Assembly (NCBI GenBank): GCA_002840365.1
Contig: PHAO01000001.1
Coordinates: 524,360 to 588,359, forward strand
Length of the DNA: 64,000 nucleotides
Direction of reading: 5' to 3'
Source: Candidatus Dojkabacteria bacterium HGW-Dojkabacteria-1
GTDB taxonomy: Bacteria > Patescibacteriota > Dojkabacteria > SC72
Made by a program: the position numbers and the translations under genes. Shown one piece after another: positions 7,573 to 29,286 of this stretch (its first letter is position 1; the number at the start of each line of letters is the position of its first letter). Under the pieces are notes generated by a model that did no database searches, had not been told where the DNA came from, and saw only the letters and a program-made list of their open reading frames with translations.

Positions 7573-10032
7573 ATGAAATTACCAATTAAAGTAGCAGAAG
7601 ATTACACTGGGATAAAGATTGAAATAGAGGAGTTACTTCATATCCTAGCAAGTAAAATAGGGGAAGTAGAGGATGTAAACAATCTTTCAGAAATGTATAA
7701 AGGTATTTTCATTGCTCAGATAACAGGTAAGCAGGAACATCCTGATGCTGAAAAACTCGGTGTATACAAAATTACAATCGGGGAGGATGAAGATATTCAG
7801 GTTGTTGCAGGTGATAAGACCTTAGAAATAGGAGACAAAGTTGCGTATATTGTTCCAGGCAATATAGTTCCCTCTACATACAAAACTTCAGAAGAATTTG
7901 AAATAAAAGCAATAAAAATGAGAGGTATACTTTCCAATGGTATGCTCTGCTCAGAAAAAGAACTTAACATTGGACCTGACCATACAAAGGTATTAAAACT
8001 TGATACAAATGCTCCTGTTGGAGAAAGTTTTACTACATATTTTGGATTCGATGATACTGTTATTGATATAGAGAATAAAGCCTTAACAAATAGGGGAGAT
8101 CTTTTTGGAATATTAGGATTAGCAAGAGAAATAGCAGGAGCTAAGAATGTAAAATTTACAAGCCCAGATTGGTATAAAGGAGAAATATATACTGTAGAAG
8201 GAGAAAATATTAACCTTGAAATAGAGAATCAAGCTACAAATCTGTGCCCTCGATATGTAGGAGTAGTAATTGACAACATCACAGTACAAGAATCACCTGT
8301 TTGGCTTAAATCAATACTACTAAAATCCGGTATTAGGCCAATAAATAATATTGTAGACATTACTAATTACATCTCTATATTAGTAGGCCAACCATTACAT
8401 GCCTTTGACTATGACAAGGTTGTAGAAAAAGATTCTAAAAGTAATGGTAGTGCAAAGATTACAGTAAGGTTAGCAAAAGATGGAGAAACAATTCATACCC
8501 TAGATAACAATTTGGTTACACTAACTAGCAATACTCTAGTTATTGCAGATAGTACAAACCCAATAGCCATTGCAGGTGTAATAGGGGGATTAGATACAGA
8601 AATAGATAATAATACAAAAAGAATAATATTAGAGTCCGCAAATTTTGATAGATTCAATGTAAGAAAGACCTCTATGTCTCTGGGTATTTTTACTGATGCT
8701 GTAACTCGATTTACAAAAGCTCTAGATCCAAATCAATGTAAATATGCTCTTCAATATGCATGTTCTTTGATAAAAGAACTTTCAGGTGGAGATTTGGCAA
8801 GTAAAATTGTAGATATATACCCTGAAGTAATAGAACCAAAGGCTATAACCCTCTCAATTTCTAAGCTTAATGAGCATCTTGGAACAAGTTTAACAAAAGA
8901 AGAAATAACGAATATTTTAGAAAATATTGAATACAATATTTCTGAAAACAACGAAAGTGAGGATTTCCTTACTGTATTAGCTCCTACATTTAGAACAGAT
9001 ATTTCAATTCCAGAAGATATTCACGAGGATATTGGAAGAATATATGGATATGAAAATATATTACCTAAGCTTCCACTAAGAGATGTCTCTGCACCAAACA
9101 AGAACAGGATTGTAGGTATAAAATCAAAGATTAGAAGTATATTAAGTAATTCTGGAGCAAATGAAATAATTACATATAGTTTTGTAAGTAAAGATTTAAT
9201 CGAGAAAAGCAATCAGGATGTTAATATTGCTTTCCATTTAAAGAATGCTCTTTCTCCAGATTTAGCCTTTATGAGAACCTCCTTGCTTACCTCTATGCTT
9301 TCAAAGGCACAAGAAAATATTCAAAGAAATATTCCAACCTTTTGTATGTATGAATTCAATATCGCACATCAAAAGGGTAATATGGACAAATTTGAATTAC
9401 CACAAGAACAATGGAATATGTCATTACTTTTCTCAACTAGAGAAGATATTCTTGATGGAAACCCGTACTACCAAGTAAAAAGATATTTAGACAAGATCTT
9501 TAATACTCTTGGTATAGAGGGGGTGGAGTATAGCTTAGTCAGGAAGTCCTCAGAAAGAGACTTACCTGTATGGATTATGAATATAATTCCTACCTTCAGT
9601 GATAAGGGTAGTGCATTGATAATGTATAAGGGCAATGTGATTGGCATAATTGGTGACTTCAAAAATTCTGTTAAATCCAATTTCAAATTACCAACGTATA
9701 CAGCTGGACTAGAAATAAATATTGAGAAATTGGCAAAATTGAAAACTAATAAAAAAATTAAAAGGGATTCTTCTAAATACCCCTCTATTACACAAGATCT
9801 AACATTTGTTGTTGAGAAAGACATGGAATACAAAGATTTAGAGAAGATCCTCTATAAAGAGATAGATAGTAAAAATAGGAAAGCAAACATAGAGTGTATT
9901 GATATATATTCTAAGGATGGTATCCAAAAAAGTATAACTATAAGAATAACAATAGAACATATGGAAAAGACACTTAGTGATAAGGACTTTGAAAAGATAG
10001 TGGAAAAAATTACCAAAACTCTTAATAAGTAA
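7573..10032 (+). CDS. pheT: Phenylalanyl-tRNA synthetase beta subunit
   Basis: The protein is 819 aa and begins 3 nt after pheS. The tRNA-binding N-domain, the B3/B4 domain and the B5 domain are present ('TFRTDISIPEDIHEDIGRIYGYENI'). A C-terminal FDX-ACB-like domain is also present. Confidence 0.85.
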   Translation: MKLPIKVAEDYTGIKIEIEELLHILASKIGEVEDVNNLSEMYKGIFIAQITGKQEHPDAEKLGVYKITIGEDEDIQVVAGDKTLEIGDKVAYIVPGNIVPSTYKTSEEFEIKAIKMRGILSNGMLCSEKELNIGPDHTKVLKLDTNAPVGESFTTYFGFDDTVIDIENKALTNRGDLFGILGLAREIAGAKNVKFTSPDWYKGEIYTVEGENINLEIENQATNLCPRYVGVVIDNITVQESPVWLKSILLKSGIRPINNIVDITNYISILVGQPLHAFDYDKVVEKDSKSNGSAKITVRLAKDGETIHTLDNNLVTLTSNTLVIADSTNPIAIAGVIGGLDTEIDNNTKRIILESANFDRFNVRKTSMSLGIFTDAVTRFTKALDPNQCKYALQYACSLIKELSGGDLASKIVDIYPEVIEPKAITLSISKLNEHLGTSLTKEEITNILENIEYNISENNESEDFLTVLAPTFRTDISIPEDIHEDIGRIYGYENILPKLPLRDVSAPNKNRIVGIKSKIRSILSNSGANEIITYSFVSKDLIEKSNQDVNIAFHLKNALSPDLAFMRTSLLTSMLSKAQENIQRNIPTFCMYEFNIAHQKGNMDKFELPQEQWNMSLLFSTREDILDGNPYYQVKRYLDKIFNTLGIEGVEYSLVRKSSERDLPVWIMNIIPTFSDKGSALIMYKGNVIGIIGDFKNSVKSNFKLPTYTAGLEINIEKLAKLKTNKKIKRDSSKYPSITQDLTFVVEKDMEYKDLEKILYKEIDSKNRKANIECIDIYSKDGIQKSITIRITIEHMEKTLSDKDFEKIVEKITKTLNK

Positions 10033-17713: not shown

Positions 17714-20299
17714 TTATTTCTTACCAAGTATTAATTTCGCTTCTTCATCAGATACTAGTTTTCTACTTTCTTTGATATCTTGATAGTTTACAGATATACC
17801 ATATACACCTGCTTGTACACAGTACTTTATCAAATCCCTGTTGTTCTCAGCGATAACGATTACCTGCCTAGAGGTATTTCTAGTAATATCCTTTAGAGCA
17901 TCAACTATCTTAAATGAGCTATTGATACCAAGATTGTACTTAGCATCTACTTCATCCATTCCAAAGCCCTGCATTACTCTTACTATTCTAGGCATATTTA
18001 GGACAACACCATCTATTTTTGATTCAAAGATTTCGTCAGCTAGTATTACCTCAGTAGGATTATCTATTATTGCATATATTCCAAAAGTAGAGGTTCTCCT
18101 TAAACCTGAAGCTGAAAGGCTCTTTTTGAAATCCTTCATAAAGGAACCATTCATAGGGGAGTGCATCGCTATATGAACATTTCTTTTTTTGTAAACATTT
18201 CTCACTCTTCTCACAATCATTAATACCCTCTTAAGAAGCTCTTTGTTTGCCATGTAATGGGGCAACCCATGTACTGAATTATCTATATCATGAGCTTCAA
18301 ATTCCTTTCCTCTTGTAAGTGCTCTGAATTCACCAATTGTACTTGATCCGATTGAAAGTATTACTTGATTACCCTGTGCTAAGTCAACTATTTCACAAAT
18401 CTTTTCAGATATATCTTTGGAATATTCAACAAATTTCTTGTCTTCAACAAAGGCAAGGGTATGTCTTCCTACTGAAAGTAGTATTCTATCCAAATCTACA
18501 TATACAAGACCATGAGAATTACCAACGTAATCAACCATCTCATTTACTTTCCCGGTTGGATTTACAAATACCTTTGTAGCCGAAGGGGCTAGGGACATAT
18601 CTTTTGGTATTTTCAAACCAGATGCTTCTTCTACCTTCACAGGTTCTGCTTGTACACTCCTTAACAAATCAATACCAGCTAAATCCTCCTCTTTATATGC
18701 TTCTACAACTGGATGTTGTAGGGTAGATTCCTTGCTCTCTACCTGCTCTTTGACCTCTTCACTTCTCTCTTTGTATACACTTCCGCTATTGCCATCTATC
18801 CTTACAATATCTCCATTTTTTAATATACTAGAAGCATTCTCAGTGCCAACAATAGCGGGAATATCAAACTCTCTACAAAGGATTGCGGTATCACTTGTTA
18901 CTCCACCTGTGTCCATGATTACACCACCACAGTGAACTATCAAAGCTTCCATTTCAGATGCGTATTTTTTAATAACGAGAATATCATTCTTACTAATAGC
19001 AATATCCTTATCATTTTCTAAAAGAATTACTTTTCCAACAGCTTGACCAAAACTTGCACCAATACCTGAAACAAGTAAATCCTCTTTTTTCTCTGCCATT
19101 GTTACATTTTCAACCTTTGGTTTACTTGCAACTTGATTCTTAGCAATATTGATAAGTTTTTCTGTTAAAGAAGGTGTATGCTTGTTACCTTGTACTATCT
19201 TTCTTGCATGTTCAACTGCTTTACTTTCTAACATTCCAATACCAGAGTATTTATCTATTGTCCATTTAAGAACTTCGGCCAAAGTATCAAAATCTCTATT
19301 ATCAATAACTACTGCTGGTTCATATGATTTCTCATAAAGATCCTTACTCTGAAGTATCCAAATCTTACCACCTGCTAATACCCATTCAATATTTTGTGCT
19401 AATCGAACTTTGTTCTCAACAATTAATGCAATCTTAGATATTTCTTTCAAATACTTATCTTCAACCTTCTGCCTATGACTCCAGTTATTTGAAATTCTGA
19501 TCTTTTGTACTGCAGGTTTACCATTAGTAGCACTCATCATTCTTACTTTCATCCATTCTTGAGGGGCAATTCTCTTTTCTAATATATTCAAATCTTTCTT
19601 GTTAAGAAGATATGTATCTGGAGTTAATTCTCCGAGAGAAATTGTCTCTCCTAAACCGAATACAGCCTCTATACTTAACTTGCTTGGATCTTGAGTAATA
19701 GGGTCAACAGTAAATGCGACTCCAGAGACTTCGGCTTGGACCATTCTTTGGACTACTATTGCCAATCTTACATCTGAGAGATTTATCCCCTTTGATGCCG
19801 CATATGCAACTACATCATCTGTAAAGAGTGATGCATAGATTCTCTTAATCGAATCTATTAAGTTTCTCACTCCTCTTACGTTTAATTCTGTAGAAAATAC
19901 CCCACTAAAAGATACTTCTGGGGCAGAAGGAAATACTACAGAAGATCTTACAGATACCCATGCATCAGTAAATCCTGAAAGTCTTGTATATGCAGTTACT
20001 AATTCCTCAAGAAATCCTTCTTCAAAGTCTGTTTTAGAAAAAGAAGCAACTATTTCAGATTCTTCGGGATTTCTACCTCCCTCTAACAATTTTTCAGAAT
20101 CTCTTAGAAGAGCTAAAGAGACAAATTTATCAAATACAGATGAGGAAACAACGAAATATTCTGGTATAGGGACATCCATATCTTTAAGTTGGAAAAGACT
20201 CAAACCTTTTCTTCCAACGGAGGATTCTTTTAGATTTTTAAATTGGAAATCTTCCCAATAGTAGATAGACCTGTTTATTTTCGAAGCAGTAGATGACAT
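17714..20299 (-). CDS. PEP-utilizing enzyme of the PEP synthase / pyruvate phosphate dikinase family, with the catalytic His replaced by Asp
   Basis: It has an N-terminal PPDK_N-like ATP-grasp domain and a central mobile domain 'GGVTSDTAILCREFDIPAIVG'. This aligns position for position with the GGrTSHaAIiARelGiPaVVG consensus, with D at the His position. The C-terminal barrel lacks a recognisable NDLTQ motif. Confidence 0.6.
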   Translation of the reverse strand: MSSTASKINRSIYYWEDFQFKNLKESSVGRKGLSLFQLKDMDVPIPEYFVVSSSVFDKFVSLALLRDSEKLLEGGRNPEESEIVASFSKTDFEEGFLEELVTAYTRLSGFTDAWVSVRSSVVFPSAPEVSFSGVFSTELNVRGVRNLIDSIKRIYASLFTDDVVAYAASKGINLSDVRLAIVVQRMVQAEVSGVAFTVDPITQDPSKLSIEAVFGLGETISLGELTPDTYLLNKKDLNILEKRIAPQEWMKVRMMSATNGKPAVQKIRISNNWSHRQKVEDKYLKEISKIALIVENKVRLAQNIEWVLAGGKIWILQSKDLYEKSYEPAVVIDNRDFDTLAEVLKWTIDKYSGIGMLESKAVEHARKIVQGNKHTPSLTEKLINIAKNQVASKPKVENVTMAEKKEDLLVSGIGASFGQAVGKVILLENDKDIAISKNDILVIKKYASEMEALIVHCGGVIMDTGGVTSDTAILCREFDIPAIVGTENASSILKNGDIVRIDGNSGSVYKERSEEVKEQVESKESTLQHPVVEAYKEEDLAGIDLLRSVQAEPVKVEEASGLKIPKDMSLAPSATKVFVNPTGKVNEMVDYVGNSHGLVYVDLDRILLSVGRHTLAFVEDKKFVEYSKDISEKICEIVDLAQGNQVILSIGSSTIGEFRALTRGKEFEAHDIDNSVHGLPHYMANKELLKRVLMIVRRVRNVYKKRNVHIAMHSPMNGSFMKDFKKSLSASGLRRTSTFGIYAIIDNPTEVILADEIFESKIDGVVLNMPRIVRVMQGFGMDEVDAKYNLGINSSFKIVDALKDITRNTSRQVIVIAENNRDLIKYCVQAGVYGISVNYQDIKESRKLVSDEEAKLILGKK

Positions 20300-21522: not shown

Positions 21523-22620
21523 CTATTTAGTATTCAATTTCCCTCGAGGGATAAGGTAAGAGGCAATAAAGGATGTAATAGGGACAATGAGAAGTATTCC
21601 TGTGCTTGCCGCAAGAGTTCTTACAATCTCCTCTGCAATTGCATCTGTTCTCAAAATATTACCTATACCACCACTGTTGTAAGTTAGAAGAATTACTAGT
21701 GCAAAACTAGAACCAGCATAAGCAATAAAGAGTGTATTAACCATTGAAGACAGATGATCCTTACCAATATTCATTGCTTGAGAAAACAGTTTCCTACTTG
21801 AAAGGGTAGGGTTTGCAAGATGTAATTCTTGAATAGATGATACTTGGCTCATTACAACATCATCTAACACACCAACAGCACCTATTAAAATACTGATAAA
21901 GAAAACTGCAGCTAAATCTATACTACCTCCAGTTTGACTAAGTAACAAAAATGCCTCTTCACTACCTGATCCATCAACACGAACCATTGAGATAAATAAT
22001 TTAGCAAGAAGAGCAACGATTACTACACCGATTAGGGTAGAAAGTACTGCGATACTACTCTTCCTATTAAACCCATGCGATACATACATTATCATAACCA
22101 ATGTAATAGATACTGTTACTACTCCAATGAGGAGTACATCTCCTCCATCCAGTATTCTTGGTATAGCCCATCCATAAAGAATCATTACTGTAAAAGCGAG
22201 ACTTAATAACGAACCAAACCCCTGTCTTTTACCAATTATGATAGCTGCTAATGCAAATATCACTACCATTATTAATATAGCTCCCTCCCTTACAAATCCT
22301 GTAATAGCCCAACTCTCATAGTCAAACCCATCGGTCATATACGTTGTATACACCCTATCTCCAATATTAAATTTTGATTTCCCATCTTCAGATAGAATAG
22401 GAATAGAAGTTCTTACACTTTCATCAGTTTCATCAATCCTGATTAAGTACTCAAAACAGGTATATCCATCATCTAATACATCAGAGCATGGAACATTAAA
22501 AACCTCCTCAACAACTCCCTTAAAAGTTTCTTCTGTTTCTTGGGCATAGATATTTAATGGAAAAAGAAACAGGAAAAGTGTAAACAATATTGTTGTAATT
22601 TTCATAAACCCATTATACAA
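21523..22620 (-). CDS. Membrane protein with a signal peptide, an extracytoplasmic N-domain and a polytopic C-terminal half, possibly of the YibE/F type
   Basis: The N-terminus 'MKITTILFTLFLFLFPLNIYAQ' is followed by multiple hydrophobic segments. The family assignment rests on topology only. Confidence 0.35.
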   Translation of the reverse strand: MYNGFMKITTILFTLFLFLFPLNIYAQETEETFKGVVEEVFNVPCSDVLDDGYTCFEYLIRIDETDESVRTSIPILSEDGKSKFNIGDRVYTTYMTDGFDYESWAITGFVREGAILIMVVIFALAAIIIGKRQGFGSLLSLAFTVMILYGWAIPRILDGGDVLLIGVVTVSITLVMIMYVSHGFNRKSSIAVLSTLIGVVIVALLAKLFISMVRVDGSGSEEAFLLLSQTGGSIDLAAVFFISILIGAVGVLDDVVMSQVSSIQELHLANPTLSSRKLFSQAMNIGKDHLSSMVNTLFIAYAGSSFALVILLTYNSGGIGNILRTDAIAEEIVRTLAASTGILLIVPITSFIASYLIPRGKLNTK

Positions 22621-22661
22621 AAAAAGAGGGGCATATGCCCCTCCTAACGAATTCTTTCTAA

Positions 22662-23588
22662 CTATCTTTCTTTCTTGTACATATATACAAAGCTAGTACC
22701 AAATGCCACAATTGCAATCAATCCAAATATTAACATTAGTTGATTACCAAAGAGAGCATCTAATTCTCCAGATGCCTGAGGAATATCTCCATCTACCACA
22801 GCATCACCATTTACATCTCCTGCAGGATTGTAAGTTACACGAATTTTTTCTTCTAATGTAATTTCATTACCCGCTTGATCTTTAATAGACATTGTAAATA
22901 CATTTCTTCCTTCCTCTAATTCAATACCTTCCAATCTAAATTCTCCTTCAGAGCTAGCTATTGTCTCATAACTAAGTATTCCTCTCTTTACAATTATTGT
23001 ACTTAAAGGTTCGGCTGTTCCTGCAATCACAAATGTCTCTTTGTTTGTTTCCTCACCATATTTGAATTCTACTGCTTCAGGATCTGGGTCTGTCCAGTCT
23101 ACAGCAGCCATTTTTACTTCACTTCTTGGTCCCATAACCCTATTTGGGAAACCTTTCACACCTGCAACATTAATTGCATATTCGCCTTCATTCTCTACTG
23201 TATATTCATATGAGAAGTTTGCTTCCCCATCAACCTTTGCACTTCCGACCTTAACATCATTAACATATACAAAGACATCGTCAAAGCCCTCAGCACTTCC
23301 TCTTATTAATATCTTGTCACCATTTGTAAGAGAAGTAACTTCACTCAATACAGGAGCCTCTAAATCAATATCGATTGCAGGCTCTTCTCTAAATCTAATA
23401 AAGGAATATATTCCGAATGCAACAAGCAATACTCCAAGACCAATAAAGATAGATCCAACAATTCTGGACATCTTTTCTTGATTCCTTTCAGGTTGCTTTA
23501 TCTCAACCTTACTTTTCATATTTTCTTGTTTCTGTTGCTTAGCAACATCTGTTTGGGCAGCACTTTTTGTATTTTTTTTCTTAGCCAC
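22662..23588 (-). CDS. Surface protein with Ig-like domains and a C-terminal cell-wall sorting-signal-like tail. It is a candidate sortase substrate.
   Basis: The C-terminus is 'GDIPQASGELDALFGNQLMLIFGLIAIVAFGTSFVYMYKKER'. That is a motif, then a 25-aa hydrophobic stretch, then a basic tail. The N-terminus is K/E-rich. The likely true start is the internal Met in 'MSRIVGSIFIGLGVLLVAFG' near 23471, which would give a signal peptide. Confidence 0.5.
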   Translation of the reverse strand: MAKKKNTKSAAQTDVAKQQKQENMKSKVEIKQPERNQEKMSRIVGSIFIGLGVLLVAFGIYSFIRFREEPAIDIDLEAPVLSEVTSLTNGDKILIRGSAEGFDDVFVYVNDVKVGSAKVDGEANFSYEYTVENEGEYAINVAGVKGFPNRVMGPRSEVKMAAVDWTDPDPEAVEFKYGEETNKETFVIAGTAEPLSTIIVKRGILSYETIASSEGEFRLEGIELEEGRNVFTMSIKDQAGNEITLEEKIRVTYNPAGDVNGDAVVDGDIPQASGELDALFGNQLMLIFGLIAIVAFGTSFVYMYKKER

Positions 23589-23678
23589 TCCAACCTATAT
23601 TAAAATTTATATACTCATATACTGATAGAATAGAATAAAATTTTACAGAGTGCAAGAAAAATATATAATATATATATT

Positions 23679-24377
23679 ATGCTCAAGAAGAAACTCTTAA
23701 AAATCTCTATTACAACAGTACTTTTGTTGTTTTTTCTCATTCCTCTTTTTGTATTTCTCATATACCCAAATTACAATCAAATTGTTGGACCTATAAAGAG
23801 ATTAAATATACAAAGAAGTACGGAAGAATTCACATTCCAAGTCCTCACTATGATATCTCCACCCAAGGACAGAGTAATGGGAATTTCAGATACAACAAGT
23901 ACAAGTGGGAGCATAGAAGAGAGTCTTGGAACAAATTTTAAACTTGAACAAAAAATTTTAGAAGAACTAAAAACAAAGATTAAGATATCCTCAATAGAGG
24001 TTGAAGGATATATCTTTGAAGGAACAGATGCAAAAACAATGGATACTGGTTTTTGGCATTTTCCAATATCACATCATCCAGGACAAAGAGGAAACTCTGT
24101 AATAATTGGGCACAGGTATGCCAAACTTCCACCGGACAAAGATACTTTTTTTAATCTAGATAAGGTAAAAATTGGTGATAGGATTACTGTCGAACAATAC
24201 AATAACTCCTTTACATACATTATCACTGATACAAAGGTCGTAGAAAAGAATGATATCTCTGTGTTACAAAACTACGATGATTACAGAATAACATTGATAA
24301 CATGTACTCCGCTTTGGACAGCAGATCAAAGACTTGTCATAATAGGAAAGCTGGACAAATTGTACAAAAACACTTAA
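23679..24377 (+). CDS. Sortase family transpeptidase
   Basis: There is an N-terminal TM anchor. The catalytic His is in 'VIIGHRY' and the catalytic Cys is in 'ITLITCTP' (TLxTC). A downstream Arg is in 'ADQRLVIIG'. Confidence 0.8.
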   Translation: MLKKKLLKISITTVLLLFFLIPLFVFLIYPNYNQIVGPIKRLNIQRSTEEFTFQVLTMISPPKDRVMGISDTTSTSGSIEESLGTNFKLEQKILEELKTKIKISSIEVEGYIFEGTDAKTMDTGFWHFPISHHPGQRGNSVIIGHRYAKLPPDKDTFFNLDKVKIGDRITVEQYNNSFTYIITDTKVVEKNDISVLQNYDDYRITLITCTPLWTADQRLVIIGKLDKLYKNT

Positions 24378-24411
24378 AATTCAATACTTTTAAATAATCT
24401 TTAGATATTTT

Positions 24412-25458
24412 TTGATGAACGACTTCTATACAAGAAAGGATGTTAATGATCATACAGTAGATATAACCATTACTATTCCAAAAGACAATTTTAAACATTC
24501 ATATGATCTTTTAGTAAAAGACTATGCAAAGGATACTGATATAAAGGGTTTTAGAAAGGGGAAAGTTCCTACAGATTTAATTAGTAATCAAATGAGAGAG
24601 GTAATAAAACTTGAGACATTTGAAAGAGTTGCTCCTCTTTACATAAATACAGCACTTAACAAGGAAAGTCTTGAGCCAATTGCTCCTCCAGAGTACACAG
24701 ATATTCCAAAACTTCTTGATGATTTAGATGTTTCTTTCACAATAAAAGTAACTTTAATGCCTAAATTTAAATTAGGAGATGTAAGTAAGATAAAGATTAA
24801 GAAAGAAAAGTTAGCAGTAGAAGAGAAGGAAGTAGAGAGTGCAGTTGAGGAGCTTAAGAATACTCAACAAACTAAAGAGAAAGATGTTAATGATAAATGG
24901 GCACAAGAGGTTGCAAAAATAATTAATGCAGAAGATGTAAAAAGTCTAAAAGATTTAAGAATAAAAATTAAGGATGCTCTACAGAAGCAGAAAGATCACT
25001 ACCAACTTCATCAATTACAAGATGAGGCATTAAGAAAAGGTATAGAGATATCAAAAATAGAAATACCCGAACCAGCTATTAAGTTTGAAGCTAGTGAAAG
25101 AGAAAAAGCCTTTGTAGAAGACATGAAAAATAGGGGAGTTAAGATTGAGGACTTCCTTAAGGCAAACAATATAACCATTGAGAAAATGAGAGAGCTCTGG
25201 ATGAAGGATGCAAAGGATGCACTTGAAGCAGACACATTTTTAAATTTGTATTCAAGAGAAAAGAGTGTAGAGATAACTGATGAAGAATTAGAAAAAAAGA
25301 TAGAAGCAATAAAGGCAAGTCAACCGAATGCTGATAAAAGTATATTTAGTAATCCTCAATGGAAAGAGTATATTAAAAATGTAGAGAGAAAAGAGAAAGG
25401 TTTTAGACTTTTTGTAGAAGAAGTCTTAGGTAAAGATTTCTTAGATGAGCATAACTAA
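24412..25458 (+). CDS. tig: Trigger factor, short form apparently lacking the PPIase domain
   Basis: The ribosome-binding signature is 'GFRKGKVP'. The gene lies immediately upstream of clpP, which is the conserved tig-clpP synteny. At 348 aa it is shorter than the roughly 430 aa that is typical. Confidence 0.7.
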   Translation: MMNDFYTRKDVNDHTVDITITIPKDNFKHSYDLLVKDYAKDTDIKGFRKGKVPTDLISNQMREVIKLETFERVAPLYINTALNKESLEPIAPPEYTDIPKLLDDLDVSFTIKVTLMPKFKLGDVSKIKIKKEKLAVEEKEVESAVEELKNTQQTKEKDVNDKWAQEVAKIINAEDVKSLKDLRIKIKDALQKQKDHYQLHQLQDEALRKGIEISKIEIPEPAIKFEASEREKAFVEDMKNRGVKIEDFLKANNITIEKMRELWMKDAKDALEADTFLNLYSREKSVEITDEELEKKIEAIKASQPNADKSIFSNPQWKEYIKNVERKEKGFRLFVEEVLGKDFLDEHN

Positions 25459-25477
25459 TATTTAAGTAAATATTACA

Positions 25478-26065
25478 ATGTCTCTTTTAATACCAATGGT
25501 TGTTGAAAAAGATAGGGAAGGAGAGAGAGCATATGATATATACTCTAGACTTTTAAAAGATAGAATCGTTTTTGTTAGTGGCCCTATAGAGACAGATATG
25601 GCTAATACTGTTGTAGCACAGCTTCTCTTTTTAGAAAAAGAGAATCCTGATGAAGATATCCAAATGTTTATTAACTCCCCAGGTGGTGTAATAAACGCAG
25701 GGATGGCAATATTAGATACAATGAACTATATCAAGTGTGATGTATCTACAATAGCGGTAGGTTTAGCAGCATCGATGGGTTCATTCTTGCTAGCACATGG
25801 TACAAAAGGTAAAAGATATGCATTACCAAATAGCAAGATACATATTCATCAGCCACTTGGTGGAGTAGAAGGACAAGCTAGTGATATAGCAATTGAAGCT
25901 CAAGAGATATTAAAGATAAGAGAGAAGCTTTACAAAATGTTAGCTAAGCAAACAGGGCAGAGTATGAAACAAATAGAGAAAGATGCAGATAGGGACAAAT
26001 ACTTTACAGCTGATGAAGCAAAAGAGTATGGTTTAGTAGATAAAGTTATTACAAAAAGAGAATAA
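25478..26065 (+). CDS. clpP: ATP-dependent Clp protease proteolytic subunit
   Basis: The Ser motif is '[11 protein letters not shown]' and the His motif is 'IHQPLGG'. The Asp region is 'DIAIEAQEI'. The N-terminus '[25 protein letters not shown]' is present. Confidence 0.9.
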
Positions 26066-26568
26066 TGTTTAGGTCAACAGATCCAATACATGATAATGCA
26101 AGAGAAAGAGCAATTGAGTTTGTACGTTCCCAAATTATTAACATGATTGAAAATGGGGATGAGGGAGATGTCGTAGATGCAATAGTTCAAGAGATTTCTC
26201 TAAGCGATATCTACACATATATGACCTATCTTAAAACAGATCAAAGTCTTCCCTTTAAATTACCATTAATAAGGTATGCAAATATAACAGATGAGAATCA
26301 ATATGCAATGGTTTGTGATTATGTAAGTGCATATAGAACAGAACTTCCGCCTAGAGATATGAGAAGGGTATACTTTATTGAGACTGCAGATTTCGCGATT
26401 ACCTTTATTCCTATACAATTAGATGGGGAGGAGATAAATATTCATATAGAGCCTCTTGATTGTTCTCCTGACTTTATACTTGAGATGTGGGATAAAGTTA
26501 GCAATCCAAAAAGTCTAGATGATATTGAGTGGGTTAAATTTGATAATATAGATGGTGAGGGCGATTAG
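26065..26568 (+). CDS. Hypothetical acidic protein sitting in the usual clpX position, translationally coupled to clpP
   Basis: The start overlaps the clpP stop as TAATG. No recognisable motifs were found. The 3' end overlaps the tRNA-Val 5' end by about 10 nt. Confidence 0.4.
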   Translation: MFRSTDPIHDNARERAIEFVRSQIINMIENGDEGDVVDAIVQEISLSDIYTYMTYLKTDQSLPFKLPLIRYANITDENQYAMVCDYVSAYRTELPPRDMRRVYFIETADFAITFIPIQLDGEEINIHIEPLDCSPDFILEMWDKVSNPKSLDDIEWVKFDNIDGEGD

Positions 26569-26635
26569 CTCAGCTGGTTAGAGCATCACATTGACATTGT
26601 GAAGGTCACAGGTTCGAGTCCCGTATCGCCCACCA
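26559..26635 (+). tRNA. tRNA-Val (anticodon GAC)
   Basis: The acceptor stem is GGGCGAT/ATCGCCC. The D-arm is GCTC-AGCTGGTTA-GAGC. The anticodon stem-loop is TCACA-TTGACAT-TGTGA, with GAC at positions 34-36. The T-loop is TTCGAGT. The discriminator is A, followed by an encoded CCA. Confidence 0.85.
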
Positions 26636-26684
26636 CTTTCCACCAATATTGTATAATTCTTTATTAATATATTTTTTTGTTTAT

Positions 26685-26966
26685 ATGGACGAACTTCAAC
26701 TTAAAGTTAAGAAGATGTACAAAGATAATGGATGAGATACCGCTCCTGAATTATTACTTATCGCTATGCAAGAAGAATTGGGAGAAATAAGTGGAAGATT
26801 TTTAGCAGAACACCCAGGATACAAAAAAAGTCTTGGTGATACCGATCCTATTCCAGAAGAGATTGGAGATTTAATCACACTGATATTTGCATTTTGTAAT
26901 AAAATGGATATTAATCCAGAGGAGTGGGTTAACAACACTATTCAGAAAAGAAGTAAACAAGGGTAG
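26685..26966 (+). pseudogene. MazG-like nucleotide pyrophosphohydrolase domain ORF interrupted by an in-frame TGA at 26733-26735
   Basis: The in-frame translation is 'MDELQLKVKKMYKDNG*DTAPELLLIAMQEELGEISGRF...EEIGDLITLIFAFCNKMDINPEEWVNNTIQKR'. The EExGE and E..GD MazG motifs are present. The TGA falls where MazG-like proteins carry a conserved Trp (..RgW..). Confidence 0.5.
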
Positions 26967-26971
26967 CTCTA

Positions 26972-27008
26972 TTTTTAAGTTTCATGCCAGAAAGTGTAGC
27001 CTACCATT
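26972..27008 (+). repeat. Copy A of a 37-nt direct repeat (TTTTTAAGTTtCATGCcaGAAAGTgTAGCCtACCATT) that is related to the tRNA-Val 3' end
   Basis: This is the first of three copies. In place of the tRNA's 13-nt 3' end gTATCGCCCACCA (itself present exactly in copy B) this copy carries the diverged gTGTAGCCTACCA. Confidence 0.7.
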
Positions 27009-27110
27009 TCCCTTAATATCTTGATTTAACAACAGATTTTATATACAATAAAGTGCTGAAGTAGCTATGCTACGTTCTTTCAAAACTGGGTCCAAAGAAA
27101 GGAGATTACC

Positions 27111-27332
27111 ATGGGTCCCAAAGATCGCAAAACCGTTGAACGAGAAGATAAAGATGGCTGGAAGCATAGCACCACCTATGACCCTGAAACCAATAATCGC
27201 TGGAGTGTAGATTATAAAGATACAGGTCTTGGTGGAGTCGGGTCAAACTGGTTTGAAGTTAAAAATGCACATCACACAGATCAGGATGACAACACCCATG
27301 ACGACAATGTTCGTTTTGGAGAATCTACTTAG
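27111..27332 (+). CDS. Hypothetical small hydrophilic protein (73 aa) in a GC-rich foreign-looking segment
   Basis: An AAAGGAGA ribosome-binding site lies upstream and a strong hairpin follows the ORF. Local G+C is clearly higher than the window average. Confidence 0.3.
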   Translation: MGPKDRKTVEREDKDGWKHSTTYDPETNNRWSVDYKDTGLGGVGSNWFEVKNAHHTDQDDNTHDDNVRFGEST

Positions 27333-27346
27333 TTTTCTTTTTACCC

Positions 27347-27394
27347 AGAAGAGAGGAGTCTTCACACTGTTTTTAAACAGAAACTCCTCTCTTC
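27347..27394 (+). terminator. Hairpin with a 12-bp perfect stem (GAAGAGAGGAGT / ACTCCTCTCTTC) and a nested palindrome CTGTTTTTAAACAG in its loop. It is a putative terminator after the 73-aa ORF.
   Basis: The inverted repeat was read directly from the sequence. A T-rich stretch 'ACTTTATTAT' follows it. Confidence 0.4.
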
Positions 27395-27544
27395 ACTTTA
27401 TTATGTAGGTCGGTTGTGAGTTGGTAGAAGCTCACATTGCAAGTTCCTGCTTATACGCTGTAAAAGGCGAAGATAAGGTGGGGCGTTTAGCAATCTAGCG
27501 GTGCAAGTCCGACGGCCTACAAATTCATATACAATGTGATAGGC

Positions 27545-27581
27545 TTTTTGAGTTCCATGCCTGAAAGTATCGCCCACCATT
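27545..27581 (+). repeat. Copy B of the 37-nt direct repeat (TTTTTGAGTTCCATGCCTGAAAGTATCGCCCACCATT)
   Basis: It contains GTATCGCCCACCA, which is identical to the 13 nt at the 3' end of tRNA-Val (26623-26635). It sits immediately upstream of the UDG-family gene. Confidence 0.75.
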
Positions 27582-27610
27582 ACTATCAATTTCCATATAT
27601 AATTATCTCA

Positions 27611-28273
27611 ATGAATAAACGAGATAATCTACAAAAAATCTTTGATGAAATCTTCAATCTTAATGTCTGTGGTAAAGACTCTTTGAAAATACCAAGAGAT
27701 ATCTCTAAAACAAATATTAATGCAAAAGTAATGATTATTGCAGAAGCTATGGCACCAGAACAGGTTAGACTCTCTGGTGTAAACTACTTCTACAGGGATG
27801 GAAGAATAGGGAATACAGGCAAATCATTAGAAAAATTCCTAAGTCTTTTTAACCATAGCGTTTATCCCGACAATTCCAACTGTGTATACCATACTGAAAT
27901 AGTACATAGCTTCCCAGGATATGTAATAAAAGGAAGCAAGAAATCAATAAGGAGACCAACGAAGAGAGAGATAGAGAAGTCTATTAATAGTGGAATACTT
28001 CAAAAAGAAATAGTTATTATCAAACCCAAAATAATATTGCTAATGGGTAACACCGCCTACACAGCCTTTTACAATTATTTCTTGAATATAACGCCTTACA
28101 GAAACCTTACAAAAGAAATAGACTATATCTCTAGTACAAAAACTTTTAATCGCTACAACAATATTCCAATCATTCCAATACAACATAGTTCTGGGGCTAA
28201 TCCAAGATTTAACAATATGCTAAAGAATATGGATTTAATAAAAATAATATCTAACATATTAGAGAATGAATAA
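27611..28273 (+). CDS. Uracil-DNA glycosylase superfamily protein (family 4/5-like)
   Basis: Motif A is 'VMIIAEAMAPEQ' (GEAPG-like). Motif 'ILLMGNTAYTAF' is present. The C-terminal motif is 'PIQHSSGANPRFN' (HPSxxN-like). The start was reassigned to the internal Met at 27611, because the tracker's N-terminus runs through repeat B. Confidence 0.6.
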   Translation: MNKRDNLQKIFDEIFNLNVCGKDSLKIPRDISKTNINAKVMIIAEAMAPEQVRLSGVNYFYRDGRIGNTGKSLEKFLSLFNHSVYPDNSNCVYHTEIVHSFPGYVIKGSKKSIRRPTKREIEKSINSGILQKEIVIIKPKIILLMGNTAYTAFYNYFLNITPYRNLTKEIDYISSTKTFNRYNNIPIIPIQHSSGANPRFNNMLKNMDLIKIISNILENE

Positions 28274-28706
28274 TATCTTAATCTATACATTCAGAACATT
28301 CCCTTGGATAGAAGATATTAAAAGTATTTCTAAAGATATCGTTGTACTAGATACATTGAAAATAGATATCATTGAGGTTGAAAAGAAATTAAAACAAAAC
28401 AAATATGTCTTTGTATTAGGTATTGCAAAGGGTAGGCATAGTTCTGTATTTGAAACAAAGGGTGTTAATCAATTTAACAAAGGGAAGATACTAACAGATG
28501 GGAAGGAAGAATATCCTTTATACTTTCCTAAGCAAGGATTTGAAAATATAAAAGTTAATAAAGGCTATACAACATCTTTTTGTAATTGGGGAATGTATAG
28601 GGTTAGTAAGTTAATAGAGGAGAGTAGTCATGAGAGCAAACATATGTTTGTTCATATAAAAGAAGAAGACATACCTGTTCTTAGTAGATATATAACATCA
28701 GAGTAA
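28266..28706 (+). CDS. Hypothetical protein (146 aa) overlapping the UDG gene by 8 nt
   Basis: It is an intact ORF coupled to the upstream gene. No recognisable motifs were found. Confidence 0.35.
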   Translation: MNNILIYTFRTFPWIEDIKSISKDIVVLDTLKIDIIEVEKKLKQNKYVFVLGIAKGRHSSVFETKGVNQFNKGKILTDGKEEYPLYFPKQGFENIKVNKGYTTSFCNWGMYRVSKLIEESSHESKHMFVHIKEEDIPVLSRYITSE

Positions 28707-28711
28707 TCCTG

Positions 28712-28748
28712 TTTTTAAGTTCCATGCTAAAAAGTATAGCCCACCATT
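28712..28748 (+). repeat. Copy C of the 37-nt direct repeat (TTTTTAAGTTCCATGCTAAAAAGTATAGCCCACCATT)
   Basis: It matches the tRNA-Val 3' end at 12 of 13 positions (GTATAGCCCACCA). It lies immediately after the 146-aa ORF and abuts the stop of the minus-strand 179-aa ORF. Confidence 0.75.
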
Positions 28749-29286
28749 ATATCTTCTCAATCGGGTACTTCTTTTCATCCCAATCACTTCTCTTCATCTG
28801 AATTACAATAAATGGTTTAATTGGTTCTTTTGATATATGTTCAAGACCCTCTGATTTATCTACTACTGATTTTGGAAAGATATAAATATATCCCTCATTT
28901 CTGATATTTTCAGGTTTACTTACTCCAAAAAAAGTATCCGTGTAGGTATACTCACCTTCAGGACTAATCTTTGTAACCTTAGAATCTCTTCTTTCTCCCA
29001 CATTTGCACCACCAACTAATGCACAGAATTTTGCAACAATAGGGTTGGAAGTTAAATATACTGCCTTTGCATTACCAAACTCTTTTGAGGAATCATTAGC
29101 TTCTTGTGGAATAAGTTCTACTAATTTCCTAGTACTACCATGTAGTACATATCCATTGTTAACTGCTAGTGTAATAATCCTATCAAGATTATCTATGATT
29201 ACATATTCAAACAGTTCCCCATTTAGTAACTTCTCGTATTTGAATTTTCCCCCTTTGTCCATTATTTCCTTTTTTAAATCTATCAT
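28747..29286 (-). CDS. Hypothetical protein (179 aa)
   Basis: It is an intact ORF with no recognisable motifs. It borders repeat C. Confidence 0.35.
   Translation of the reverse strand: MIDLKKEIMDKGGKFKYEKLLNGELFEYVIIDNLDRIITLAVNNGYVLHGSTRKLVELIPQEANDSSKEFGNAKAVYLTSNPIVAKFCALVGGANVGERRDSKVTKISPEGEYTYTDTFFGVSKPENIRNEGYIYIFPKSVVDKSEGLEHISKEPIKPFIVIQMKRSDWDEKKYPIEKI

Follow-up and report, generated by a model that had tools for sequence, protein, structure and literature searches.

How does a tRNA gene in the chromosome of an ultra-small bacterium come to be followed by a row of repeats that resemble its own 3′ end, and which enzyme could have put them there? The question is raised by a 64,000-nt stretch of Candidatus Dojkabacteria bacterium HGW-Dojkabacteria-1 (contig PHAO01000001.1, positions 524,360–588,359), referred to here as the window, in which a tRNA-Val(GAC) gene (26559–26635, + strand) precedes three direct copies of a 37-nt repeat. 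We find that this repeat belongs to a tRNA-anchored family, that the discrete cassettes between its copies are shuffled among genomes, that one cassette of the window has been transferred, that a large serine recombinase (LSR) occupies the orthologous locus of relatives, and that the site exists in both empty and occupied form. The repeats are probably attR-type junctions of elements that insert at the 3′ end of tRNA-Val in Dojkabacteria, the window holding a three-cassette array that lacks the LSR.

The repeats of the window

The tRNA-Val(GAC) gene encodes its CCA end and is the sole tRNA gene detected in the window by ARAGORN and Rfam. It anchors the array, and its 3′ end would be the attB-side half-site. 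A 29-nt degenerate pattern, scanned over the 64 kb with at most 3 mismatches, matches exactly three sites, all on the + strand, with 0 expected from 100 shuffles. These are repeat A (26972–27008, TTTTTAAGTTTCATGCCAGAAAGTGTAGCCTACCATT), repeat B (27545–27581, TTTTTGAGTTCCATGCCTGAAAGTATCGCCCACCATT), and repeat C (28712–28748, TTTTTAAGTTCCATGCTAAAAAGTATAGCCCACCATT), precisely where a preliminary description of the locus had placed them. Weaker copies were sought at up to 10 mismatches of 30, and no fourth copy was found in the window. The pairwise identity of the repeats is 31–32/37 (84–86%), slightly higher than the value of about 80% in that description. Copy B matches the last 13 nt of the tRNA at 13/13 positions and copy C at 12/13, as previously observed, and copy A does so at 10/13. 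Repeats A and B each combine a putative P half-site with a core, which in A reads ..CCTACCA; A is 3/30 off the family consensus. Repeat C would be the final junction of the array. The segments delimited by the tRNA and the repeats carry 336, 536, and 1130 nt of cargo. The earlier statement that no integrase is visible also holds, as tblastn with the recombinase of relatives (see below) returned no LSR homologue in the window and Pfam detected no recombinase domain in ten further window open reading frames (ORFs).

A tRNA-anchored repeat family across Dojkabacteria

The preliminary description had proposed a search of related genomes, and this search revealed a family of 206 copies in 91 loci of Dojkabacteria-like genomes and metagenomes, counted by a Hamming-threshold rescan of loci first found with exact-pattern scans. 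Among species-representative genomes, the exact pattern occurs in 21 loci, all but one of which are labeled Dojkabacteria or Saccharibacteria metagenome-assembled genomes (MAGs), with one Muribaculaceae; 1 IMG/VR contig and 69 metagenome contigs (sludge, digesters, and fermenters) were also found. The loci fetched are labeled L001, L017, and so on, and all relatives are MAGs or metagenome fragments. The family consensus is TTTTTAAGTTCCATGCCTGAAAGTGTAGCCCACCATT, and copies can be written in short as AAGTTCCATGCC..CCCACCA. Copies share one strand within every locus except one; L062 is the sole locus for which the exact pattern was reported on both strands (1388–1416, −; 1749–1777, +). The spacing between repeats has a median of 714 nt (5–95% range, 436–1762 nt), and the densest contig carries 11 copies in 12 kb. 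Many copies sit at contig ends; the repeats break assemblies, which explains contig breaks in Dojkabacteria MAGs.

Among the loci that reach far enough upstream, a tRNA gene precedes the first repeat on the + strand in 32, and in 28/32 it is a tRNA-Val (Val-GAC, 22; Val-TAC, 6; Lys, 2; Pro, 1; unassigned, 1). The alternative that the preliminary description had named, a common intergenic repeat dispersed without regard to tRNA genes, is not what we see: the repeat is restricted to tRNA-anchored, co-oriented arrays. One anchor, the tRNA-Val(GAC) of L069 (oriented, 1027–1100), has no encoded CCA, and the first cassette there begins right after ..GCCCA.

The information content of the aligned copies falls to background right after CCACCATT, and its leftward decay is gradual over approximately 30 nt. 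The left part often forms a weak TAGA..TCTA hairpin ahead of a T5 run. Single-strand DNA folds of the repeat, on both strands, were no better than those of shuffles (z = −1.0 to +2.0), and a terminator scan called nothing at the repeats. The repeat thus appears to be conserved as a sequence and not as a hairpin, and we rejected an attC-like or terminator hairpin on these grounds. The putative P arms are nearly identical (0–1 mismatches in 30) across genomes whose trigger factors share 42–63% identity. Degenerate repeats, with 5–10 mismatches, are common in the arrays.

Large serine recombinase islands at the same tRNA

The preliminary description had also pointed to a recombinase elsewhere in the genome and to empty sites in relatives as informative. 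A recombinase was found at this very locus in sister genomes, as was an empty site for an island that carries it. The IMG/VR contig L026 begins at tRNA-Val(GAC), which is followed by a 601-aa ORF on the opposite strand that runs into the tRNA 3′ end. Genes for an FtsK/SpoIIIE-like protein, a small-terminase-like protein, and a type IIG restriction–modification enzyme come next, and a repeat ends the island 12.5 kb on. Its Resolvase, Recombinase, and Zn_ribbon_recom domains identify the 601-aa protein as an LSR. Homologues with 56–91% identity in L027, L028, L029, and L031 fill the slot that is held by cassettes in the window, the gene order there being MutS, PPDK, AI-2E, sortase, trigger factor, ClpP, (ORF167), tRNA-Val(GAC), LSR. 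In L026 and L030, the LSR gene likewise adjoins tRNA-Val(GAC), on contigs without the upstream flank.

These islands are 8.5–13 kb long, with the LSR gene directly downstream of the tRNA and convergent with it. The islands of L027/L028 and L029 measure approximately 10 kb, and an island closes with the repeat in L026, L027/L028, L029, L091, L101, and L105. No repeat was found at the end of the L031 island within the 10 kb fetched, and the L030 contig is too short to tell. More distant LSRs (41–61% identical) adjoin tRNA-Val(TAC) in L091, L101, and L105, and the same P arm closes their islands. One pair of sites can be compared directly: L018 reads tRNA, YecM, NUDIX, whereas L029 reads tRNA, LSR island (10.1 kb), a repeat ending ATCGCCCACCA, YecM, NUDIX. 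The flank sequence after CCACCA is identical in the two, so that L018 represents the empty and L029 the occupied form for the LSR island.

Among the 739 ORFs of the fetched loci, the LSR is the only recombinase family that recurs, and the scan of recurrent or array-adjacent ORFs detected no tyrosine recombinase. The arrays yielded no fragments of LSR pseudogenes. Vertical and horizontal inheritance of the LSR could not be told apart by comparing its divergence with that of host proteins.

Three further observations concern the LSR genes. The ORF reads across the junction into the tRNA, so that its C terminus, ..GWWAIRDSNL, is encoded by the reverse strand of the tRNA-Val 3′ end (L026, oriented, 71–1876; also L027, L029, L030, L031, L091, and L105); the protein would therefore not end in the same residues when the element is integrated and when it is excised. 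A 133–136-aa ORF without a family match always accompanies the LSR gene (L026 1894–2301, −; homologues in 6 loci) and is a candidate recombination directionality factor. In Levybacteria, an LSR with 41% identity abuts tRNA-Lys(CTT), convergent and overlapping (L103/L104, approximately 9931–10004, reverse-complemented). Because the same arrangement is seen there, a CPR-wide clade of LSRs may generally target tRNA 3′ ends, CPR denoting the candidate phyla radiation.

Position of the crossover and reconstruction of attP

The preliminary description regarded the repeats as relics of att sites duplicated from the tRNA 3′ end. They do appear to be insertion junctions, but only ACCA would derive from the crossover, and the rest of the 13-nt match would belong to the element. 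In L026, L027, and L091, the attR core (GTGTAGCCC) differs from the local tRNA 3′ strand, as GTGTAGCCCACCA faces an adjoining tRNA end of GTATCGCCCACCA (GTGTCGTCCACCA in L091). The attR core of L101 (GTGTCGCCC) likewise differs, with GTGTCGCCCACCA set against the tRNA end TATCGCCCACCA. Since the 5′ strands of these tRNAs need their own 3′ strands, the differing attR bases cannot be a displaced tRNA fragment. The tRNA-Pro (..CACCCCGACCA) and tRNA-Lys (..CCTCACCA) anchors are intact up to ..ACCA, which narrows the exchange to ACCA or the TT that follows.

Judged from these sequences, the crossover would be confined to ACCA or the position just after it. The half-site of the element itself would then make up most of the repeat, the tRNA-like inner part included, as that part differs from the local tRNA 3′ end in 4/6 LSR islands, and the tRNA would for this reason never be damaged on insertion. 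We considered and rejected the classical alternative, in which the exchange falls at the left end of the 13-nt match and the repeat is a displaced tRNA fragment, given that the attR cores of 4/6 LSR islands could not pair in the local tRNA and that the tRNA-Pro and tRNA-Lys anchors are intact.

The reconstructed attP is 56 bp long and consists of P arm, core, and TCCATCTTTTTCTGCCTGTAACTTA. Its best symmetry axis, CCCA|CCA in three islands, gives 12–13/26 matches. The outer arms, TAAGTTCCATGCCTG and TAAGTTACAGGCAGA (also written TAAGTTCCATGCC and TGCCTGTAACTTA), match at 10/15 positions. The outer P arm compares best with the tRNA T-arm at a 4-bp shift (10/18). An offset between attP and attB half-sites is known for serine integrases, and the 4-bp shift recalls it, which is only suggestive. 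In L105 (reverse-complemented), the repeats at 18494, 19199, and 20691 all carry ..TATCGTCCACCA, which equals the local tRNA-Val(TAC) end, ..GTCGTCCACCA; this end is unusual in comparison with the common ..CGCCC or ..AGCCC forms.

Cassettes as modular units in relatives

The stretches between consecutive repeats, 115 in all, were tallied for ORFs of at least 60 aa, and 81/115 contain exactly one. The cassette ORFs lie on both strands (90 +, 47 −, that is, 47/137 opposite to the array), and their orientation is constant within each cassette family. TGnTATAAT-like sequences follow many repeats; these and all other promoter calls, in the window and at cassette starts, are consensus matches only.

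The same cassette can stand behind the tRNA or behind a repeat, with the same first base after ..CCACCA, as seen for the ORF73, DUF5655, and CAAX families. The ORF73 cassette stands behind the tRNA in L017, behind repeat A in the window, and behind other repeats in L007 and L021. The DUF5655 cassette is preceded by tRNA-Val(TAC) in L013 but by repeats in L006 and contig CAZZPP010000002.1. For the CAAX cassette, the preceding element is tRNA-Pro(GGG) in L006 and a repeat in L023. Cassette order differs between genomes while the boundaries stay identical. Cassettes also vary in presence: L017 is without the MazG cassette that comes first in the window, and the ORF73 cassette adjoins its tRNA.

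The commonest cassette, present in 22 loci (L013, L014, L016, L021, and 18 more) and always on the minus strand, encodes an Erm-like rRNA adenine dimethylase (PF00398, E = 5e−38). APH-like and GNAT cassettes recur too, and these three are possible antibiotic-resistance-type genes in CPR bacteria. The cargo families comprise NUDIX, Ham1, UDG, MazG-like, Erm-like, APH-like, GNAT, CAAX protease, SDR, cupin, amidohydrolase, alginate lyase, M23 peptidase, HAD, GDSL, and ASCH, together with a radical SAM and S41 pair. PHROGs gave nothing useful for the cassette proteins.

The three cassettes of the window

Cassette 2 (27009–27581, +), which contains ORF73 and a structured-RNA candidate, is widely shared. 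Over 26999–27603, it is 94.7% identical to L017 and 96.3% to L023, whereas the adjacent chromosome (21572–26062) is only 70% identical to L017. With 95–96% identity of the cassette set against flanks at approximately 70%, its recent transfer between diverged genomes is evident. Its start bears a promoter-like TTGATT-N17-TACAAT (27021–27049, +) in a sequence that is conserved in L007, L017, and L021; a promoter scan of the window gave matches at chance level. ORF73 (27111–27332, +) encodes a small hydrophilic protein without a family match, and an identical sequence is present on 52 contigs. After it comes a 10-bp inverted repeat, AGAGAGGAGT ... ACTCCTCTCT (27350–27392, +), that is kept in copies of the cassette.

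The structured-RNA candidate (27405–27523, +; 119 nt) occurs in 20 loci at 91–98% identity and always lies directly upstream of a repeat. Its predicted fold has four helices (minimum free energy, −42.6 kcal/mol; z = −3.06), and the consensus structure has 37 pairs, 3 of them with compensatory changes. Rfam has no match to it, scans of the window and of the GC-rich segment giving tRNA only. In several loci, a TATAAT box lies 6–7 nt upstream. A shorter, diverged copy without nt 36–80, the long middle hairpin, is present on the − strand of L086 (1609–1689) and L093 (1250–1330), followed by a degenerate repeat; these copies are probably decayed. The second segment had previously been called GC-rich and foreign-looking. 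Its GC-rich part proves to be mostly this conserved RNA candidate, within a mobile cassette. The GC-rich segment together with repeat B was also considered as a tRNA, tRNA-like gene, or transfer-messenger RNA, and this was rejected, as ARAGORN finds none there and a pairing of its GGGGCG stretch with the repeat is not conserved in other copies.

Cassette 1 (26636–27008, +; 373 nt including the terminal repeat) had no homologue in the other loci fetched. It carries an ORF for a MazG/YpjD-like nucleoside triphosphate pyrophosphohydrolase (26685–26966, +; PDB 2gta YpjD, E = 3.6e−4; Pfam MazG, E = 0.0018, below the family cut-off). The interruption by TGA reported previously is real: an in-frame TGA at 26733–26735, an aromatic position in YpjD, is identical in two independent Logan assemblies, so that it is not a sequencing error. 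TGA is used as an ordinary stop (5/50 long window ORFs); as the host stops at TGA, the ORF is either a pseudogene or a read-through gene, and probably the former. Cassette 3 (27582–28748, +) has two genes, encoding a protein of the uracil-DNA glycosylase (UDG) superfamily (27614–28273, +; Pfam PF03167, E = 3.9e−13) and ORF146 (28266–28706, +), which has no family match and has homologues in L036 and L078. The window array looks old, given the 3–4 mismatches in its repeats and the TGA in the MazG-like gene.

Flanks of the array

The window is CPR chromosomal DNA, encoding MutS, PPDK, sortase, a short trigger factor, ClpP, type IV pilus proteins, PheS, and Dus. To the left of the array lies ORF167 (26065–26568, +; 167 aa, no Pfam match). 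It closes a block of genes for sortase, trigger factor, ClpP, and ORF167 that relatives also have ahead of tRNA-Val(GAC). The ClpP family is represented in 17 loci and that of ORF167 in 12, and the ClpP block forms the left flank in 17 loci, as in the window. As called, ORF167 overlaps the first 10 nt of the tRNA gene (26559–26568). On the right, a gene for a 179-aa protein (28747–29286, −) has a stop codon that overlaps the end of repeat C, and its homologue in L099 has the same position, after a degenerate repeat. The Logan contigs of SRR3546457 break inside the 5′ part of the tRNA, L001 ending at 26587 and L004 starting at 26558; the 30-nt overlap could reflect 5′ sequence shared by tRNA-Val isoacceptors or strain variation at the locus.

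Proposed mechanism and alternative explanations

In the explanation that we favor, each repeat would be composed of a P arm of approximately 28 nt (TTTAAGTTCCATGCC..GT.T..CCCA) and the crossover region ACCA that is shared with the tRNA. The autonomous members would be the LSR islands of 8.5–13 kb that end in the same repeat, and we infer that it is the LSR that acts on these sites. A co-oriented cassette array would arise when elements insert serially at the tRNA or when the part with the LSR is lost, and each cassette of such an array would have its own putative promoter, one or two accessory genes, and, at its end, a P arm. Internal junctions would be attR-like, a P arm joined to an arbitrary right side. 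How single-gene cassettes without a P′ arm might move is a matter of conjecture, and our preferred guess is a shuttle, favored because the small cassettes lack that arm. An LSR island would excise together with the cassettes downstream of it, using a distal P-arm junction as attR; after transfer, the island would leave alone via its own junction, and the passengers would stay beside the tRNA. Such a shuttle would mirror composite SCC elements as described.

Several results weigh against this explanation. No recombinase was found in the window, and most arrays are without an LSR within the available sequence. A conserved P′ arm was sought at cassette starts, and no positional conservation was found past TT; serine integrases bind two half-sites per site, so that free circles of the small cassettes should not be substrates. 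The palindromic symmetry of attP is weak, as 30% of shuffles reach 13/26 at some axis and good matching is confined to the outer arms. A crossover at the far right, in ACCA, does not predict repeats that carry the local tRNA variant (..TCGTCCACCA), as those of L105 do. No gradient of repeat decay from the tRNA-proximal to the distal end of the arrays was seen. The excised attP junction (P arm, core, and LSR-side arm) was not found in IMG/VR or the loci then fetched, and a looser check on later metagenome loci (core then TCCA) gave one chance match. No circular contigs were found either.

Alternatively, single cassettes might circularize and reinsert at the tRNA 3′ end, an attI-like site, by means of an LSR supplied in trans, with the 37-nt P arm as the counterpart of attC. 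Such a system would account for cassettes that mostly hold one gene, are exactly bounded, keep their polarity, and change their order. Also in its favor are the integron-like cargo (Erm-like, APH-like, GNAT, NUDIX, Ham1, UDG, and others), the near identity of P arms across diverged genomes, and secondary insertions whose junctions with tRNA-Pro and tRNA-Lys fall exactly at ACCA. We nevertheless regard individual circularization as unlikely, because the cassettes lack the conserved P′ half-site that the two-half-site rule calls for, no circular or tandem self-junction was seen, and most sampled arrays are without an LSR. Less likely still, and in our view improbable, is that the arrays consist of decayed tandem islands and nothing else, the cassettes being leftover right ends of LSR islands that homologous recombination reshuffles after DNA uptake, with the tRNA and repeats as homology arms and no site-specific mobility of the cassettes. 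The LSR islands do end with cargo beside the P arm, degenerate repeats are common, and the window itself has imperfect copies, a probable pseudogene in cassette 1, and type IV pilus and type II secretion system E/F genes (PF01478, PF00437, PF00482, PilM_2) with a presumed role in DNA uptake. Random deletions, however, would not yield 81/115 intervals with one ORF and a promoter-like site at the left boundary, and the arrays hold no LSR pseudogene fragments. Moreover, the same first base follows CCACCA behind tRNA-Pro, tRNA-Val, and repeats, where homology spans at most 7 nt, too short for RecA-type exchange.

We attach next to no credence to a regulatory or structural intergenic element (terminator, repetitive extragenic palindromic-like, protein-binding, or UP element) without a role in recombination. 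The weak hairpin and T5 run that often precede the core, and the −10-like box that often follows it, would suit such an element, but the copies are co-oriented whatever the strand of the genes, none occur elsewhere in the 64 kb, the folds and the terminator scan were negative, and the arrays are anchored at tRNA genes while LSR islands end in the same sequence. Insertion of LSR-type elements at the tRNA 3′ end thus stays the reading that we prefer. The integrase-less array of mini-cassettes or islands at tRNA-Val proposed in the preliminary description stands, and its two accounts of the origin of that array, accretion of cassettes and decay of tandem islands, have been narrowed and not fully separated.

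Comparison with known systems

By comparison of their features, the closest known system is that of the staphylococcal and enterococcal SCC/ECC cassette chromosomes (SCCmec, psi-SCC, and ECC), which the large serine recombinases CcrAB move. These rely on LSRs, target the 3′ end of rlmH, and have att repeats of approximately 50 bp, multiple attR sites, and recombinase-less remnants (PMC6222049); multiple attR sites were reported in 16/32 ECCs, as was a ccr-less remnant in a recipient strain (PMC6222049). The Dojkabacteria elements resemble them in the LSR, in their target at the very 3′ end of a conserved housekeeping gene, which insertion does not inactivate, in direct-repeat att sites of such a length, and in tandem units, multiple attR sites, recombinase-less remnants, and highly variable cargo. 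They differ in their target, which is a tRNA (Val-GAC or Val-TAC, sometimes Lys or Pro) with a CCCACCA core and not rlmH with a TATCATAA core, and in having one LSR gene per island in place of a ccrA/ccrB pair, the likeness to Ccr resting on shared Pfam domains. Their units mostly carry a single gene in 0.4–1.8 kb, compared with elements of 20–80 kb, and the host is an ultra-small CPR bacterium.

The arrays also recall integrons and clusters of attC sites lacking integron integrases (CALINs): the cassettes are co-oriented, mostly carry a single gene, and each end in a recombination site; arrays grow from one fixed anchor; recombinase-less arrays are common; and the accessory cargo includes resistance-type genes. 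Unlike in integrons, the scan of recurrent or array-adjacent ORFs turned up no IntI tyrosine recombinase, and the anchor is a tRNA 3′ end and not an attI beside intI. Whereas attC is variable in sequence and folds as a single-strand hairpin, the site here is conserved in sequence and has no hairpin fold, and whereas integron cassettes are mostly promoterless and served by Pc, those described here have promoters of their own (consensus matches), with a third of the genes against the array. The accretion system suggested in the preliminary description is therefore integron-like in outcome but is not an integron: the strict sense of the term fails on the missing IntI and attC hairpin, the putative promoters, and the occurrence of genes in either orientation.

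Tandem islands targeted to tRNA genes offer a third likeness, with insertion at a tRNA 3′ end that leaves the tRNA intact, a partial tRNA-like copy at the far end, and tandem accumulation. In contrast to those islands, the integrase here is a serine and not a tyrosine enzyme, the crossover would fall in the last bases (ACCA), the tRNA-like part would mostly be the half-site of the element, and the units are far smaller. The literature searched, on integrons, attC, serine recombinases, and tRNA islands in Dojkabacteria or Patescibacteria, yielded nothing relevant, and we found neither this array nor any tRNA-targeting LSR of CPR bacteria described in it.

Implications for gene acquisition in Dojkabacteria

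CPR (Patescibacteria) have tiny genomes, and how they gain genes is little understood. The locus described here appears to be a gene-acquisition hotspot, a widely conserved entry point dedicated to accessory genes. The cargo that enters includes nucleotide-sanitizing enzymes, Erm- and APH-like resistance-type genes, restriction systems, and a conserved RNA candidate, and the entry point is tied to a clade of serine integrases that would target the universally conserved end of tRNA genes without damaging them. The repeat itself provides a simple annotation marker of this variable region.

A wider reading is tentative, and we hold it to be possible while leaning against it: Dojkabacteria, and perhaps other CPR bacteria, may have a serine-recombinase-based functional analogue of the integron, in which the tRNA 3′ end is the fixed acquisition site. 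Equally tentatively, a double-stranded half-site of approximately 37 bp might serve as the cassette signal of that analogue, with an LSR acting in trans to capture, reorder, and export self-expressed single-gene cassettes. If the cassettes are individually mobile, they would form an integron-like system built on a different recombinase family, and the compact sites (the tRNA-Val 3′ end and the attP of approximately 56 bp) would be candidates for genome engineering. If the analogy with integrons is true, it would represent an independent invention of cassette-based gene acquisition in ultra-small bacteria.

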